A stretch of 64,000 bases of DNA from an uncultured Dehalococcoidia bacterium (GTDB lineage Bacteria > Chloroflexota > Dehalococcoidia > Lucifugimonadales > CATOSD01), in contig CATOSD010000002.1 of assembly GCA_951812395.1 (NCBI GenBank), positions 546,442 through 610,441 of the forward strand. The letters run 5' to 3'. The position numbers and the translations under genes are program-made. This document shows, piece after piece, positions 38,070-50,436 of this stretch. The notes under the pieces are model-generated. The model was not told the origin of the DNA. It was given only the letters and a program-made list of their open reading frames with translations, and did no database searches. Numbering within the stretch: the first letter of the stretch is position 1; every line of letters starts with the position of its first letter.

Positions 38070-38327
38070 GTGAGTCTGAACATCAAGAGCGAAGAGGCCC
38101 ATCAGTTGGCCAGGGAGTTGGCGCAGCTCACCGGCGAAACTATGACGGGCGCGGTCACGGTTGCGCTCAGGGAGCGGCTCGCCAGGGAGAGGCGCGAACG
38201 CAGCGTCGAGGAGCGGATGCGCGAGATCCACGCGATAGCGCAGCGCTGCGCCAGTATGGTGGGCGACGGCCCCTCCGCCGTCGAGCACGGCGATTTCCTG
38301 TATGACGAGCGGGGGCTGCCCAGGTGA
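38070..38327 (+). CDS. vapB: type II antitoxin, VapB/FitA-like
   Basis: 85 aa with a GTG start after AAGGAGAAA. MSLNIKSEEAHQLARELAQLTGETMTGAVTVALRERL is typical of this antitoxin class. Overlaps the toxin start (GTGA). Confidence 0.8.
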   Translation: MSLNIKSEEAHQLARELAQLTGETMTGAVTVALRERLARERRERSVEERMREIHAIAQRCASMVGDGPSAVEHGDFLYDERGLPR

Positions 38328-38710
38328 TAGTAGATTCGTCGGCGGTCCTTGCGATCCTGTTAGGTGAACCAGACGCTGAGAGGTATGAGAGGGCGATAGC
38401 TGAAGCTTCTCGCTGCCAAATGTCGGCCGCCAATTACCTGGAAACAGCAATTGTCCTTGAAAGTCGGACAGGGCCTGCAGGCATTCACGAACTCGACCTT
38501 CTGGTGGAGAGAGTTCCAATCGAGTTGACGCCAGTTACATCTGAGCAGGCCCGGGGCGCTCTGAGCGCTTGGCGGCGTTTTGGCAAGGGCAACCATCCAG
38601 CGGCCCTGAACTTTGGCGATTGTTTCGCGTACTCGTTGGCGGAGGCCAGCCGGGAGCCGCTTCTGTTCAAGGGCCTGGACTTCGGGCTGACGGACATTGA
38701 GCCTGCGTGA
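38324..38710 (+). CDS. vapC: type II toxin VapC (PIN-domain ribonuclease)
   Basis: MIVDSSAVLAILLGEP.. (first acidic residue), a later E, ..NFGDCFAY.. (conserved D) and a length of 128 aa. Confidence 0.85.
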   Translation: MIVDSSAVLAILLGEPDAERYERAIAEASRCQMSAANYLETAIVLESRTGPAGIHELDLLVERVPIELTPVTSEQARGALSAWRRFGKGNHPAALNFGDCFAYSLAEASREPLLFKGLDFGLTDIEPA

Positions 38711-38721
38711 CGATTTGCCTC

Positions 38722-39069
38722 TTAGCGTAGGCGGACGTTGCAGCGGGGCTGCCAGTCGCTGACCACGCGGGCCTCGAGCTCGCGGGTTTGGGCGTCGTCG
38801 TCGGTGAAGGCGACGCTGAACTGCACGTCGTCGCCGAACATGGCTAGCTCTCGGCGCAGTTCGGGGTTGGTCTCGTTGTAGAGGTGGGAGAGCAGGCGCT
38901 GGCGGACGGAGGTGGTGGATATGCCGACGTAGAGGCATTCGGGGTAGTCGCCGGAGGGGAGCCAGAGGGCGTAGACGCCGCGCCGGTTCAGGGGTAGTGA
39001 GCGGACCTCGGCACTGTGAAAGGGGCGATGCTCCCTTTCGAGCTGGTACTTGAGCGCGAACGGGTTCAT
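38722..39069 (-). CDS. stand-alone GIY-YIG nuclease-domain protein
   Basis: 115 aa: GVYALW..(x11)..LYVGIS, RQRLLSH, later ELEARV and N. Begins 24 nt downstream of the DUF1156 gene on the same strand. Confidence 0.75.
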   Translation of the reverse strand: MNPFALKYQLEREHRPFHSAEVRSLPLNRRGVYALWLPSGDYPECLYVGISTTSVRQRLLSHLYNETNPELRRELAMFGDDVQFSVAFTDDDAQTRELEARVVSDWQPRCNVRLR

Positions 39070-41937: not shown

Positions 41938-44900
41938 TCTGTACCTTCCTCGAAATCCAGTCCTAGCTGCTGGCTGTTCTCGCGAACCGCTCGCGCTATG
42001 CTGTCGGAAAACCCACTCGCATTCGTGGCGGATATTGTAACGCTAACTGTGACCTCTCCGCCGCCATCTATAAGGGCGCGGACAATCTCATCGCGAAGCG
42101 GGCTGATCTCGTCCAGTGACAGTTGGCCCTGGACGACCTTGTTGACCTGTATGCGTTTCACTGCTTTCGCCAGCGGTGGTTGGGACGGCGTCGGTTCCTT
42201 GGGAGTGTTGTCGCCCTCTTCGCTGTCCGAGTCGGGTTCTGCCGCAGGGTCATCGGATGTCGCCTTACGCTGCTGTTGTTCCTTGACCATCTCGGCCATG
42301 AGCCGGTCGACCAACAGTCCGTCGCCGCGCTCAGAGATTACCCCCTGCTCGCCAAAGAGCAGGTTCCTGTACTCTTCAGTGTCCGCGGTATAACTCTCGG
42401 CATAACCGAACTTGGCTTCCGGCACGCCCTCACGGACGCTGTCCAGAAGCACGCCCTTGTTGCGGAGGCGCTGCATGTAGACGTTCGTGGCCATCAGGTT
42501 CCACAGGTCGTCTAATGCTATGTGGTCGCGGGAGGTCGTCCAGATGTGTTTTTCGAGAATCGCCTGTAGCGCATCGGGGGAGAGCTTGTCCGCGAGCGCC
42601 TCCTCCTCGAGGAACTTGACGAAGGCGTTTTCGACTATCTGGCCGGTGTCCTGGGCGTTTATCTGCCACCGCGAGAGGTCGATGTTAGACGCATCTTGCG
42701 GGTCCGGCTGGAAGGGCGCGAGCGCCCAGCGGTAGGCGTTCACCAGTGCGCGGCGCAGTTCAGAGTCGTATCTTCTTACGTTCTCAGTCACCTGCGACCG
42801 ACGTGCGCCCGCCAGGTTGGAAACGGCGCGTTCGCCGGCGCGGATCGACTGCCAGGAGAGGTAGTTGCGGGCGGCCGTGTCGAGTTGGCGGACCTGGTCC
42901 CGCGCCGCCGCGAGGAATAGGAGGGTATTCTTGCGGATGCGGGGCGCGTCGCCTCGGTTCATGAGCAGGTCGAGGGCGAAGGGGCCGGCCAAGTCTTCCT
43001 CGGCGCGCCGGCTTGGGAGCGACTTGTCGTGGGGAAGAATGACCAGCCTGACGGTTTCCGTGTCCGGAACGTCGCCTGAGCTGACGGGGAACAGGACAAT
43101 GTCCGACCTGCGTGGTACGGACTCTTCCATCGACATGCGGATCTGGTCGGCGATTTCGCGGGCGGTGACGGTGCCCGCGCGGTCGGCGGCGACCTTGTTC
43201 AGGTTCTCCTCGACGTGGAAGAAGTATCTGTCGTCGCTGCTGTAGAGGTAGTACAGGTCGGCGGACATGCGGCCTATGGCCTCGTTGTAGACGGCGACTC
43301 CATCACCAGGCTTCACGGCCCCAAGCCGGATCTGGCGCATGTCGATGCCGCGGGCACTGCCTGTGGGCGCGCTGCCCAGGAAGATGGTGCGCGCTATCCG
43401 GCGCGACGCTCCACCTACTTCCGCGAACCTTTGGACGTTCTTGTCTATGCGGTCCGTTCTTGATTCGTCACTGTCCACTTCGGACATGACGGAGCTCCAG
43501 TTGCCAGTCATCAGGTTTACGAACTCGTTTGACGGGGCGGGGTCGTCCAGCGTGAGGCTGGCCGGCATTATCAGCGGGAACGGATCGTTTCTCAGGTTGA
43601 GGCGGCTGATGCATGCGGCCATCATCCTGAGGACGCCGCGAGTGCGCTGGAACCGCGCAATGGAGGACCAGTCGGAGTAGAGGCGGTCGAAAATCTCCGG
43701 GTGAATGGGGTAGCAGTCCTTCATGCGCTGTAGGTAGAGCTGCTCGCTAACCCCCTGCGGGTACTCGCTTCGATTCTGGCTATACATCCTCGAGAATGCC
43801 GCGCAGGTGCGGTCCCTCTCGGACTCGTCCAAGACAGCGCCGAACAGCCTGCGGCGGACGACTTCGAACGCCTCGTAGACTTCCAGCGGCTCCCAGGTTG
43901 CCTCGATGCGCCCGAGAATGCTGTCCAACCTGGCGAGCACTTCGGCGCCGAGCTCGCCTCCGGCTTCCACCGCGTGCTCGGGCAGGGTGATGACAAGCGA
44001 CACACGGCCGCTTCGGCGCGCGGCCTGGGTAAGGTTCTGGACGAAGGTGTAGTTGCTGTCGATTGCGTTGCCGGTGTTGCGGATGTAGGCGACCAGCTCG
44101 TCTATCAGTATGACGCAGGGACCGACGTGCTGAAACAACTCGTCGAGTTGGCCCGCGGGGGCGGTGCCCTGACGCGCGGCCTCTCCCACGATGTCGTAGC
44201 CTTCCTGCCCGCCGAGCTGGTAGGCCATTTCGCCCCAGAGCGTGTTGAGTGGGTCGCCTTTCTCGGTCGTTATGGAACTCGTGGGGGACAGGAACACGCA
44301 GTCGAGAACGGCCACCTTGGCGCCCTGCCACTCGTCCGGGTCCAGACCTGCCTCCTGCATCATGCCGCGAATCTCTTCGCTCGGCCTTCGGGCGTCTTCG
44401 CTATCACCAGCGGGGTTGATTAGCAGACTCGCGTTCTGGACAAGGTGATACAGCGCGATAAGGCTGTGGGTTTTGCCGCCGCCAAAGCCCGTCTTGGTCT
44501 GGATCACGGGCTCGCCGCCGTTGCCGGCTAGTCGCCTCAGCGTGTTGACGAGCAACGTGCGGATGCCGGGCGTGATGTAGGTGTGGGTAAAGAAACTCAC
44601 CGGGTTGCCGTACTGGGTCGCGTCGGCGCGTCCGTCGTGGACCTGTTGGAGGTCGGCGGCGAACTCGGCCTGGCTGAAGACGCCCTGCGCGACGTCCTGG
44701 TTTATGCGCACAACCTCCCGCCAGGGAGTGAGGGCGGTCGAAGTGCGCTGTGGGCGCTGTGGAAGTTCATCAGGCGGCGGGGAATCCGGTTGAGGCGGCG
44801 TCACGTCGGACAGAGTTGGCAGCGTGGGGGCGGCGAACAGCAAGTCCCGAATGCGCTCGACGTCTGCCCTTTCGCCTGGCCTGCCGATCTTACCGAGCAC

Positions 44901-45299
44901 GTCGATGATGTGGAACAGGTGCGCCCTGGCAAACTCGGGGTCGATGTCTTGCGTGGACGGATGGGACGCCTGGTTTCTGGCCTCCTTGATCTGCCAGAGG
45001 GCGTTCTGCACTGTCATATCGTTGCCAAGGGCGTTACGAAAGCCGTCTCGCCAGTAGTCCCGGATAAGGATGGGGAAGTTGTTTATGTCCAGCAGGGACT
45101 CGACGTCGACATTACCTCCAGCAGTGTTGGTGCGGTAGTCGTCCGGCGTCCACCTTTCGAGCGAGTTGCGAATACGGTCGTCCGGCCTGCCGCCCGGTAT
45201 GGTACGCAGGTTGCGAACGATGAACGGGCGCATGGCGTCTCGGAGAATGTCCAGGGCCCTTGTGAGGGCGTCCTTGTTGGGTCTGCTTACGGTGGTCAT
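41934..45299 (-). CDS. HEPN (Swt1-like) - DUF499 P-loop ATPase fusion protein
   Basis: Probable start is the ATG at 45299 (GGAG RBS). RNQASH Rx4H motif at 44961-44978, Walker A GFGGGKTHS at 44463-44489, Walker B VILIDELV at about 44085-44114, and the RFQRTRGVLRMMA block typical of DUF499. Confidence 0.85.
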   Translation of the reverse strand: MTTVSRPNKDALTRALDILRDAMRPFIVRNLRTIPGGRPDDRIRNSLERWTPDDYRTNTAGGNVDVESLLDINNFPILIRDYWRDGFRNALGNDMTVQNALWQIKEARNQASHPSTQDIDPEFARAHLFHIIDVLGKIGRPGERADVERIRDLLFAAPTLPTLSDVTPPQPDSPPPDELPQRPQRTSTALTPWREVVRINQDVAQGVFSQAEFAADLQQVHDGRADATQYGNPVSFFTHTYITPGIRTLLVNTLRRLAGNGGEPVIQTKTGFGGGKTHSLIALYHLVQNASLLINPAGDSEDARRPSEEIRGMMQEAGLDPDEWQGAKVAVLDCVFLSPTSSITTEKGDPLNTLWGEMAYQLGGQEGYDIVGEAARQGTAPAGQLDELFQHVGPCVILIDELVAYIRNTGNAIDSNYTFVQNLTQAARRSGRVSLVITLPEHAVEAGGELGAEVLARLDSILGRIEATWEPLEVYEAFEVVRRRLFGAVLDESERDRTCAAFSRMYSQNRSEYPQGVSEQLYLQRMKDCYPIHPEIFDRLYSDWSSIARFQRTRGVLRMMAACISRLNLRNDPFPLIMPASLTLDDPAPSNEFVNLMTGNWSSVMSEVDSDESRTDRIDKNVQRFAEVGGASRRIARTIFLGSAPTGSARGIDMRQIRLGAVKPGDGVAVYNEAIGRMSADLYYLYSSDDRYFFHVEENLNKVAADRAGTVTAREIADQIRMSMEESVPRRSDIVLFPVSSGDVPDTETVRLVILPHDKSLPSRRAEEDLAGPFALDLLMNRGDAPRIRKNTLLFLAAARDQVRQLDTAARNYLSWQSIRAGERAVSNLAGARRSQVTENVRRYDSELRRALVNAYRWALAPFQPDPQDASNIDLSRWQINAQDTGQIVENAFVKFLEEEALADKLSPDALQAILEKHIWTTSRDHIALDDLWNLMATNVYMQRLRNKGVLLDSVREGVPEAKFGYAESYTADTEEYRNLLFGEQGVISERGDGLLVDRLMAEMVKEQQQRKATSDDPAAEPDSDSEEGDNTPKEPTPSQPPLAKAVKRIQVNKVVQGQLSLDEISPLRDEIVRALIDGGGEVTVSVTISATNASGFSDSIARAVRENSQQLGLDFEEGTE

Positions 45300-45498
45300 T
45301 GCGGGGTCTCCGTTAGCGGCGTGTGGGTGATATGTGTGCGTGGGGCGTGGCTGCGGGTGATGGCGGCATTCTAGCACGACACGGCGTCGACGGGACAACG
45401 CGAGGCCGCCTTATGCAGGCCCGCCGGCGCACGCGCGCCGTTGGCGTAAACCTGCTAGACTTGGCGGCAACGCTGACACTGGACAGGGAGGTGTGCAC

Positions 45499-48266: not shown

Positions 48267-48446
48267 ACGCTGCGAGAGCATCGCCGCCGGTTCGGCGGCG
48301 CGGCGGGCGGGGGTTCGCAGTCCAGGGAGTAGCGGCAGGAATAGAGGAAGGTTCTCTGCCAATCCCCGTACGAGAACGGGACATGGTTGACTATTGGTAC
48401 GCTCCTAGCAGATAATTTGTTCCAAGATCATACTGCGAGGCGAATC

Positions 48447-49331
48447 ATGTCACGCGCACCCTCCAAATTGTACCTTGATGTCGATAGCAATACACCAGAA
48501 TTCGATCTTCCGAAGGGCGTAATCAGGCGGCAACGTCAACGTATGATCGCTTTTGGGTGGTACGGAGGCAAGTATAGCCAGTTGGACTGGCTATTGCCGC
48601 GTCTGCCTGACTCGCATCACTACTGTGAGCCATTTGGCGGCTCTGGCGCGGTCCTTCTCAACAGGCTTCCTTCACCTGTGGAGACATACAACGACTTGGA
48701 CGGAGAAGTCGTGAACTTCTTTCGTGTTCTGAGGGAGCAGCGAGAAGAGCTTGTCGCACAGATTGCGCTGACACCTTTCTCCCGCGAAGAGTTTTACCTT
48801 GCGATCTCGAACCAAGGTGAGGGTGTCTCGGCCCTCGAACGTGCCAGGCGGTTCTTTGTCCGCGCACGGCAAGCGAGAACCGGGCTCGCTCAGACCGCAA
48901 CACTTGGCAGATGGGCGAACTGCAAGAATACTAGCAGAGCGGGCATGTCAGGCGTAGTCTCGAGATGGCTTGGCAGCGTGGAGTCACTGCCGGAAGTCGC
49001 CGAGAGGCTGATGCGCGTGCAGATTGAGAATCGTCCCGCGGCGGATGTTATCCGGCTGTATGATGGTGGAAGGACCCTATTCTATTGCGATCCACCGTAT
49101 CCGCACGGTTCCAGGGGAGACAGTCGGGCCTATGGCTATGAAATGACTGACGCGGAGCACATTGAATTGTCGAAGCTATTGCACGGAGCTAAGGGTAAGG
49201 TCGCTCTCTCTGGGTATAGGTGCGATTTGCTCGATGAACTTTATGCAGATTGGGATCTGTATCTGGCTCCGGTCAAACAATCCCACGCCATAAAAAAGGA
49301 TCGACAGGAAGCCCTCTGGACTAACTTCTAG
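48447..49331 (+). CDS. D12-class (Dam-like) N6-adenine DNA methyltransferase
   Basis: FGWYGGKYSQL, motif I EPFGGSGAV, motif IV DPPY (49089-49100). Start ambiguous (48387, 48447 or 48543). Visibly AT-richer than the flanks. Confidence 0.85.
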   Translation: MSRAPSKLYLDVDSNTPEFDLPKGVIRRQRQRMIAFGWYGGKYSQLDWLLPRLPDSHHYCEPFGGSGAVLLNRLPSPVETYNDLDGEVVNFFRVLREQREELVAQIALTPFSREEFYLAISNQGEGVSALERARRFFVRARQARTGLAQTATLGRWANCKNTSRAGMSGVVSRWLGSVESLPEVAERLMRVQIENRPAADVIRLYDGGRTLFYCDPPYPHGSRGDSRAYGYEMTDAEHIELSKLLHGAKGKVALSGYRCDLLDELYADWDLYLAPVKQSHAIKKDRQEALWTNF

Positions 49332-49347
49332 ATGGGCGCACCCAAGA

Positions 49348-50436
49348 ATGCCTATCGAATACGAAAGTGCCAAGGAGGTTCTTCGAGCGGCGTTTGATGC
49401 CGCGGAAGTACATCTGCTCTCAGATAATGCTCGTCCCGCTCCGTCGATGCAATTCTCCGCCGACATTGATGTTGTGTTCGGGTCCAGAACACAGGCCTTC
49501 AGAGAGGTTCTGCTCGGCTGTCTGCTTGCACGCATTCAGGACAAGGATATCAACGTGAGGATGCCTTACGTTTCACTGGGATCCAGTGCATACAACGGCA
49601 GGACTCTCGATGAACGCGTAGTAAATCCGACACTTCAAGAGAGAAGAATCCCATCGTCCAGAGGTCCGTTCCTCAGTGTGTTCCGGCGTATGGTGTCTTT
49701 CGTTCCTGCCACGAGGGAAGGTCTTCGGGACAAGACAGCATACGACGCCTTTTTGGCCATCATTGACTTTGTGGCCAACACCGAGCACGATGAAGAGCTT
49801 AATGCTGTCCTAGAGTATGTCGCTTTTCAGTTCCTGAAGTTGCGTGAAGCTGCCGGAGCGCCACTGACTCGTGTGCACCGCATGAGTCTTGAGCAGATCG
49901 CGCAGTTGAGTGCTCTCCTACTCGATACCCCTAGCGGAGGCAGGCTCCCCGTGTACATGGTAGTGGCAACGTTTCAAGCCATAAGCAGGCGGTTCACTCT
50001 TAGTTGGGACGTTCGATGGCAAGGGATCAACGTCGCTGACTCGGCATCGGGCGTCGGCGGCGACATTGAGGTGGCATCCGAGGGATCTACAATTCTGGTT
50101 GCAGAGGTCACCGAACGAACAGTCGACAGAAACCGCATTGTGGCCACCTTTAACTCCAAGGTTGGCCCACACGGAATCATGGACTATCTGTATTTCGTGA
50201 GCGATCCAACCCAACCGGAGGATGCCATGCAGCAAGTGCGCCGCTACTTCGCACAGGGCCATGAGATCAACTTCGTTGTGGTTGCAGAATGGATTTCGGC
50301 CGTACTCGCGACACTTGGCAGCGCGGGCAGGCTGGTCTACCTTGAAGCCCTTCTTGAACTGATTGACCGAGACGATACGCCAGTAGCAGTGAAGTCCGCT
50401 TGGAACGACAACGTCAGCCGGATCATTGCCGGTTAG
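49348..50436 (+). CDS. hypothetical protein, positional candidate for the cognate restriction endonuclease
   Basis: 362-aa ORF 16 nt downstream of the methylase, same strand and same AT-richer composition. Possible nuclease-like GGDIEV-x11-AEVTER segment. No family recognisable by eye. Confidence 0.45.
   Translation: MPIEYESAKEVLRAAFDAAEVHLLSDNARPAPSMQFSADIDVVFGSRTQAFREVLLGCLLARIQDKDINVRMPYVSLGSSAYNGRTLDERVVNPTLQERRIPSSRGPFLSVFRRMVSFVPATREGLRDKTAYDAFLAIIDFVANTEHDEELNAVLEYVAFQFLKLREAAGAPLTRVHRMSLEQIAQLSALLLDTPSGGRLPVYMVVATFQAISRRFTLSWDVRWQGINVADSASGVGGDIEVASEGSTILVAEVTERTVDRNRIVATFNSKVGPHGIMDYLYFVSDPTQPEDAMQQVRRYFAQGHEINFVVVAEWISAVLATLGSAGRLVYLEALLELIDRDDTPVAVKSAWNDNVSRIIAG

Follow-up and report, generated by a model that had tools for sequence, protein, structure and literature searches.

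Organization of the operon

The window, i.e., the whole stretch of 64,000 nucleotides that was analyzed, contains a three-gene operon composed of hmaC, hmaB and a small GIY-YIG gene (Table 1). Residues 189-1116 of HmaC matched the PADLOC HmaC model (PDLC00662; E 1.9e-237; model positions 2-936 of 941) as well as Pfam DUF499, and the protein possesses Walker A (GFGGGKTHS) and Walker B (VILIDELV) motifs. The PADLOC model starts past the HEPN domain. This is the only HmaC in the genome. HmaB matched its own PADLOC model (PDLC00660) over the full length (E 3.7e-285), and hmaB is translationally coupled to hmaC, its GTG start sharing nucleotides with the stop codon of hmaC in a GTGA; the GIY-YIG gene begins 24 nt past hmaB. 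The hmaC reading frame opens with an ATG at 45299, with a GGAG 10 nt upstream. Within a conserved MTTxxRPN / RPN(K/R)DAL block, M1 was found to be invariant in homologues, and because both M1 and RPN(K/R)DAL are conserved in all of them, this ATG was taken to be the true start.

Table 1. Positions of the features described in the text, with the basis of each assignment.
Feature	Position	Strand	Basis
hmaC gene; HEPN plus HmaC/DUF499 ORC/Cdc6-like AAA+ ATPase, 1121 aa	41934..45299	-	PADLOC HmaC, Pfam DUF499
Swt1-like HEPN domain, HmaC N-terminus (residues 1-165)	44805..45299	-	Pfam PF18731, AlphaFold2 model, alignment
RNQASH, Rx4H catalytic-type motif (R108, N109, H113)	44961..44978	-	minus-strand read and translation, homologue alignments
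Walker A of HmaC	44463..44489
HmaB / DUF1156 N6-adenine DNA methyltransferase, 947 aa	39094..41937	-	PADLOC HmaB, Pfam DUF1156
Predicted minimal GIY-YIG nuclease, 115 aa, third gene	38722..39069	-	conserved order, alignment, model and Foldseek
vapB and vapC	38070..38710	+
Two-gene insert, low GC	48387..50436	+

The 115-aa product of the third gene reached only a sub-threshold Pfam score for GIY-YIG. An alignment of 47 orthologues revealed invariant G31, Y33, Y47, G49, R58, H62, N68 and E99, with N111 present in at least 90% of the sequences. The structural model (pLDDT 90.6) was matched by Foldseek to the UvrC GIY-YIG domain with a probability of 1.0 and TM scores of 0.75-0.82, confirming a GIY-YIG fold at the level of predicted structure. 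Judged from their sequences, the ATPase, the methylase and the GIY-YIG protein are all full length and retain their catalytic residues, i.e., the operon is an intact and compact copy. A scan of the operon for promoters and terminators gave nothing above shuffle expectation.

The operon is flanked by the housekeeping genes Ldh_2 and TenA, and by a vapBC pair that is convergent with its GIY-YIG end. This pair consists of vapB (Rv0623-like, E 2.4e-26) and vapC (PIN, E 4.5e-15), and is also found in the closest relative (L010; 88% identity). The window additionally harbors a two-gene insert of low GC content (0.56), which encodes a D12-class Dam-like methylase (Pfam E 7.6e-22) and a 362-aa protein matching Pfam RE_SacI (E 1.7e-07; 31.9 bits vs. 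a cut-off of 19.3). These two genes, which are likewise present in L010, probably constitute a type II restriction-modification (R-M) pair. The Ldh_2/hmaC flanks of the window and L010 align, with one segment of ~70 bp upstream of hmaC being duplicated in L010. Between Ldh_2 and hmaC, L010 carries a gene for a 210-aa NYN-domain (RNase-like) protein (L010:9028-9660); the window has only a 193-bp gap at the corresponding place (45300-45492), and tblastn detected no trace of this gene in the window.

The N-terminus of HmaC is a Swt1-like HEPN domain

The first-pass annotation had proposed that the DUF499 ATPase carries a fused Swt1-type HEPN module at its N-terminus, and profile searches returned exactly this. 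Residues 14-133 matched Pfam HEPN_Swt1 (PF18731) across model positions 1-111 of 115. The score was 31.1 bits with full-length HmaC as the query and 34.1-34.8 bits with the isolated domain, in both cases above the curated gathering cut-off of 27.5 bits. PF18731 was matched by 44 of 44 homologous N-termini scanned (best E 1.2e-11). Weaker matches of these N-termini were to other HEPN families only, i.e., Apea (11), DUF4145 (6), DZIP3 (4), MAE_28990 and RiboL-PSP; a few homologues also touched PF21693 (SWT1_3rd) in the Pfam scan. When searched against a representative protein library, the HEPN profile retrieved 971 clusters at E <=0.001, the best matches being mostly incomplete metagenome fragments.

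An alignment-based AlphaFold2 model of the domain (pLDDT 89.9, pTM 0.84) was entirely alpha-helical, with helices at residues 7-32, 39-59, 96-111, 121-137 and 141-154. Residues 60-95 form a variable helical insert, which is partly deleted in Poribacteria sequences. Helix 96-111 ends in R108, and the next loop contains H113; the predicted helices and the position of the motif match the published description of HEPN domains (Anantharaman et al., PMC3710099). The domain had initially been described as a helical module of about 130 residues ending in the motif. Its helical nature was borne out by the model, but the motif does not mark its end, given that helices 121-137 and 141-154 follow and the domain extends to approximately residue 155. 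A Foldseek search of the model against PDB and BFVD retrieved no HEPN protein and nothing with E <0.5 (best E 0.5-0.6, TM <=0.3). Similarly, a comparison of the HEPN alignment profile with PDB sequences yielded no HEPN protein, only spurious matches to armadillo repeats (E >0.05). Membership of the HEPN family is thus supported by sequence profiles, motif conservation and predicted topology, rather than by a fold match.

Conservation of the Rx4H motif

Re-reading of the minus strand recovered the codons AGA AAC CAG GCG TCC CAT at the positions originally given for them (44961-44978), with R108 (AGA) at 44978-44976 and H113 (CAT) at 44963-44961. In translation, the motif is embedded in ...QNALWQIKEARNQASHPSTQD..., with residues 100-118 reading ALWQIKEARNQASHPSTQD. 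A bare Rx4H carries no weight by itself, because shuffles of the HmaC protein contain on average 1.2 Rx4H motifs (and 3.7 of the looser Rx4-6H), and because a second Rx4H occurs in HmaC at residue 125. For the stricter pattern R[NDH]x3H, the expectation falls to 0.16 per shuffle. What raises RNQASH above chance is the PF18731 match exceeding the cut-off, the invariance of R108 and H113, and the recurrence of Rx4H throughout the clade.

The first-pass annotation had made its reading contingent on the Arg/His pair being conserved among homologues, and this proved to be the case. R108 and H113 were invariant across 50 database homologues and 44 genome loci with 34-92% identity, for which mean column identity was 49%. 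Amongst 84 clade members, the His was present in all 84 and the Arg, and hence Rx4H, in 83. The single Arg loss was observed in a Poribacteria MAG (L065:460-3876), in which the motif reads LNKVSH instead of RNKVSH; this sequence may represent an inactivated copy or an assembly error. RNQASH also conforms to the extended HEPN signature, i.e., Rx4-6H with a polar residue (N, D or H) after the Arg: of 50 sequences, 30 have N at position 109 and 19 have D. The acidic residue expected in helix 2 is present too, with position 40 being E/D and position 41 being D/E in 41 of 50 sequences each, within a predicted helix at residues 39-50.

The locus lacks an HmaA helicase

The Hma system is defined by HmaC, an adjacent HmaB and HmaA, a Swi2/Snf2 helicase that is usually fused to a PD-(D/E)XK nuclease. 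The locus encodes HmaC and an adjacent HmaB, but no HmaA. A search of the genome (3.69 Mb, 2 contigs, 95.8% complete) with the HmaA model (PDLC00659) gave no match at E <=1e-80, either at the locus or elsewhere. The best genomic match (127 bits, restricted to model positions 73-271 and located 275 kb away) was rejected as a generic Snf2 protein, since the HmaA model also finds matches in each of the 14 control genomes. The large genes flanking related loci included no Hma-type helicase-nuclease. Those open reading frames considered as HmaA candidates were instead AddA-like UvrD/PD-(D/E)XK, RecG, M16 peptidase, TmtA or ThsA-like proteins, or had no family match. As the conserved third gene, the GIY-YIG nuclease stands in the place of the HmaA helicase-nuclease.

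Related loci and their distribution

We collected 83 related loci, three by exact-protein look-up and the others from 80 species genomes. The order HEPN-DUF499, methylase, small GIY-YIG was preserved in 72 of the 83, the exceptions being mostly cut contigs. Relatives at 88%, 57% and 53% identity have the same gene trio in different chromosomal settings. In several loci, a gene for an AAA_15/AAA_21 ATPase of ~520 aa is situated between hmaC and hmaB (L030:13388-14986, L034:13962-15527, and also L013, L020, L025, L037, L047 and L051). The best PADLOC matches of the L030 protein were PD-T4-4_A, AriA and GajA, and the inserted gene looks like a defense gene nested within the operon; these inserts echo the insertions that were reported for canonical Hma (PMC11232893).

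In an even sample of the phylum comprising 401 genomes, HmaC was found in 97. Strong matches to the small GIY-YIG protein occurred in seven of the 401, and in each of these seven an HmaC with a score of 778-811 bits was located 3-8 kb away. Five of these seven genomes contained no HmaA at E <=1e-80 anywhere, and in the other two (G358 and G366) HmaA was located beside a second, canonical HmaC. These two genomes therefore carry both locus types, i.e., a canonical helicase-linked locus and a separate GIY-YIG-linked locus (G358, C1 44096-55800 and 1380791-1387854; G366, C1 2177229-2187747 and 2596880-2602975).

In a maximum-likelihood tree, inferred by a quick method and with most GIY-linked rows collected as relatives of the query, all 29 GIY-linked ATPases fell on one branch (SH-aLRT 100). 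Thirteen of 14 helicase-linked ATPases formed a separate clade (SH-aLRT 100), and the remaining one (L093), which has no HEPN, branched by itself. Helicase-linked HmaC proteins of the same phylum have a homologous HEPN domain, in which RNKWAH aligns to RNQASH. Because helicase-linked HmaC proteins also carry the domain, the HEPN-DUF499 fusion appears to be older than the split between GIY-linked and helicase-linked forms. From these sequences, HEPN appears to have been kept with either DNA effector.

The hosts are mostly Dehalococcoidia and other Chloroflexota, together with Poribacteria and Latescibacterota MAGs. The relatives L013-L092 come almost only from MAGs of Dehalococcoidia or other Chloroflexota, Poribacteria, Latescibacterota and Caldilineaceae, which are lineages typical of marine sponges. 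The host lineages of these relatives suggest horizontal spread within a sponge-associated community.

Relation to published work

The HEPN-DUF499 fusion is an ordinary and already published architecture, and the helicase-less context is the sole unusual point of the locus. In 2013, Anantharaman et al. reported the fusion under the name Ava_2192 group, classed it as "Active", located it in R-M-like operons that also encode a methylase and a Snf2-DUF3883 helicase-nuclease, and proposed an accessory role (PMC3710099). The system was later named Hma (Payne 2021, PMC8565338), and in 2026 was renamed a Type-1 DUF499-centred BREX-related system (Rakesh & Krishnan, PMC12839542). The fusion is covered by the 2026 census of 1370 taxa (PMC12839542) and is also represented in Pfam. 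A role for the HEPN domain on DUF499 as a "backup suicide RNase" has already been proposed (PMC3710099; PMC12839542).

Only one Hma system, that of Halomonas, has been tested experimentally; its HmaC (958 aa) has no HEPN, and HmaA conferred defense on its own (PMC11232893). In eukaryotic Swt1, it is the PIN domain that acts as the nuclease, the HEPN domain being predicted to be inactive (PMC3710099). Our literature search found no RNase assay of an HEPN-DUF499 protein and no characterized member of the Swt1-like HEPN clade. Nor did it find any mention of a GIY-YIG or helicase-less form of Hma, GIY-YIG being absent from PMC12839542. The suggestion that the ATPase might couple sensing to RNA cleavage is plausible, but is not new, since it is the published hypothesis for the HEPN-DUF499 architecture (PMC3710099; PMC12839542).

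Proposed function and alternative explanations

We consider it probable (roughly 0.6) that residues 1-155 represent an HEPN domain of the Swt1-like type whose active-site signature is complete (R108, N109, H113 and the acidic residue of helix 2), mounted on the HmaC/DUF499 ATPase of a methylation-based anti-phage system and functioning as an RNase. Starting from the domain family, motif conservation, operon structure and helicase absence, all of which the analysis shows, we infer the following mechanism. HmaC would place the HmaB methylase on DNA so that self becomes marked, in the way that the DUF499 ATPase MtsA loads its methylase in the related MANTIS system. On invader DNA that is unmodified, HmaC would assemble in an ATP-dependent manner and bring two HEPN domains together, given that HEPN RNases need a dimeric composite site. 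Such pairing would result in metal-independent RNA cleavage and growth arrest of the infected cell, and the small GIY-YIG protein would cut DNA in place of the missing HmaA helicase-nuclease. Both the activation by oligomerization and the division of labor with the GIY-YIG protein are conjectural.

The RNase reading is supported by the PF18731 match, the invariant Arg and His, the motif position in the model, the occurrence of HEPN in helicase-linked HmaC, the HmaC/HmaB/GIY-YIG context and the lack of HmaA. The underlying logic has been proposed by others (PMC3710099; PMC12839542), and DUF499-dependent methylase loading has been shown for MANTIS. Against it stand the fact that no member of the Swt1-like HEPN clade is known to be an active RNase, the predicted inactivity of the eukaryotic Swt1 HEPN, the negative Foldseek and PDB profile searches, and the fact that the tested Halomonas HmaC has no HEPN. 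A bolder proposal holds that, in the helicase-less GIY-YIG subtype, HEPN is more than a backup and acts as a co-primary effector under the control of ATP and DNA, with the minimal GIY-YIG protein recruited in trans for DNA cutting. This is possible, although in our estimate the odds are against it. Were it true, the system would be a methylation-based self/non-self system with an RNA cleavage read-out from AAA+ assembly on unmodified DNA.

Amongst the rival explanations, the foremost, which we regard as unlikely, is that the HEPN domain is non-catalytic and serves as a dimerization or nucleic-acid-binding (sensor) module, so that the system would act on DNA only, via the GIY-YIG protein. Inactive HEPN binding modules do exist, as in eukaryotic Swt1 (PMC3710099), the Swt1-like clade is without known RNase activity, and one clade member has Leu in place of the Arg (L065). 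Inactive HEPN domains typically lose the motif, however, whereas here the R, N/D and H are kept among sequences that share as little as 34% identity (range 34-92%) and a mean column identity of 49%. Moreover, the DUF499-fused Ava_2192 group was itself classed as 'Active' by Anantharaman et al. (PMC3710099).

Less probable still is a latent anticodon nuclease of the PrrC/RloC kind, which would cut a specific tRNA rather than bulk RNA and fire only once a phage anti-restriction factor had disabled the methylase or ATPase, i.e., a guard and not a parallel effector. The architecture speaks against this, since PrrC and RloC carry their HEPN at the C-terminus of an ABC-type ATPase, whereas HmaC has it at the N-terminus of an ORC/Cdc6 AAA+ ATPase, and Pfam assigns the domain to the Swt1-like and not the PrrC/RloC family. 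The guard model nevertheless shares its logic with PrrC, in which an HEPN RNase fused to an NTPase is embedded in, and silenced by, an R-M system (PMC3710099), and the retention of HEPN in both the helicase-linked and GIY-linked clades is consistent with a role that does not depend on the DNA effector. Finally, there might be no real HEPN at all, the Rx4H being a chance occurrence in an N-terminal extension that is simply helical. This would agree with the ~1.2 such motifs expected in HmaC, the second copy at residue 125 and the lack of a structural match to HEPN in the Foldseek search of PDB and BFVD. It is hard to reconcile with an above-cut-off match to positions 1-111 of the 115 in PF18731 that recurs in 44/44 homologues, or with an invariant R/H motif whose position, together with the predicted helix topology, matches HEPN. 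The PF18731 matches in 44/44 homologues and the Rx4H in 83/84 clade members effectively refute a chance origin, which is by far the least probable of the rivals.

For the preferred RNase reading, this three-gene, helicase-less copy offers a test case of the long-standing claim that an HEPN head acts as an RNase coupling DNA sensing to abortive infection. Since no helicase-nuclease would mask the phenotype, the helicase-less context makes the HEPN hypothesis cleanly testable.

Comparison with known systems

The closest counterpart of the HmaC described here is the HEPN variant of HmaC, i.e., the Ava_2192-type HEPN-DUF499 protein. It has the same domain order, with a Swt1-like HEPN containing Rx4H followed by the ORC/Cdc6-like AAA+ DUF499, the same adjoining DUF1156 N6-adenine methylase, and the same proposed suicide or backup RNase role for HEPN. 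The third core gene of canonical Hma encodes the HmaA Snf2 helicase-PD-(D/E)XK nuclease, whereas the present locus has the 115-aa GIY-YIG protein instead, and GIY-linked ATPases of this kind form their own clade as opposed to the canonical helicase-linked Hma ATPases.

PrrC and RloC also combine an HEPN RNase and an NTPase in one polypeptide that is genetically tied to an R-M module and provides a second, abortive line of defense. Their likeness to HmaC is in logic only, given that their HEPN is C-terminal and of another HEPN family, their ATPase is ABC-type and they are associated with a type I R-M system. The C-terminal HEPN of eukaryotic Swt1, the namesake of PF18731, belongs to the same Pfam family as the HmaC domain, but is predicted to be inactive (PMC3710099), in contrast to the bacterial domain with its full motif.

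Like the locus, MANTIS (Type-2 BR; bioRxiv 10.64898/2026.09.23.753747) combines a DUF499 AAA+ ATPase with a related N6-adenine methylase. It differs in that its ATPase is without HEPN, a word that is absent from the preprint, whereas the HmaC described here has this domain. MANTIS additionally needs a small protein, MtsB, and employs the HKD helicase-nuclease MtsD; MtsB is given as DUF3870 in the preprint, while a heading in PMC12839542 reads DUF3780. Experiments on MANTIS showed that the methylase is loaded onto DNA by the DUF499 ATPase, which both methylation and restriction require (bioRxiv 10.64898/2026.09.23.753747). Of the experimentally studied systems, MANTIS is the best template for HmaC and HmaB of this locus.
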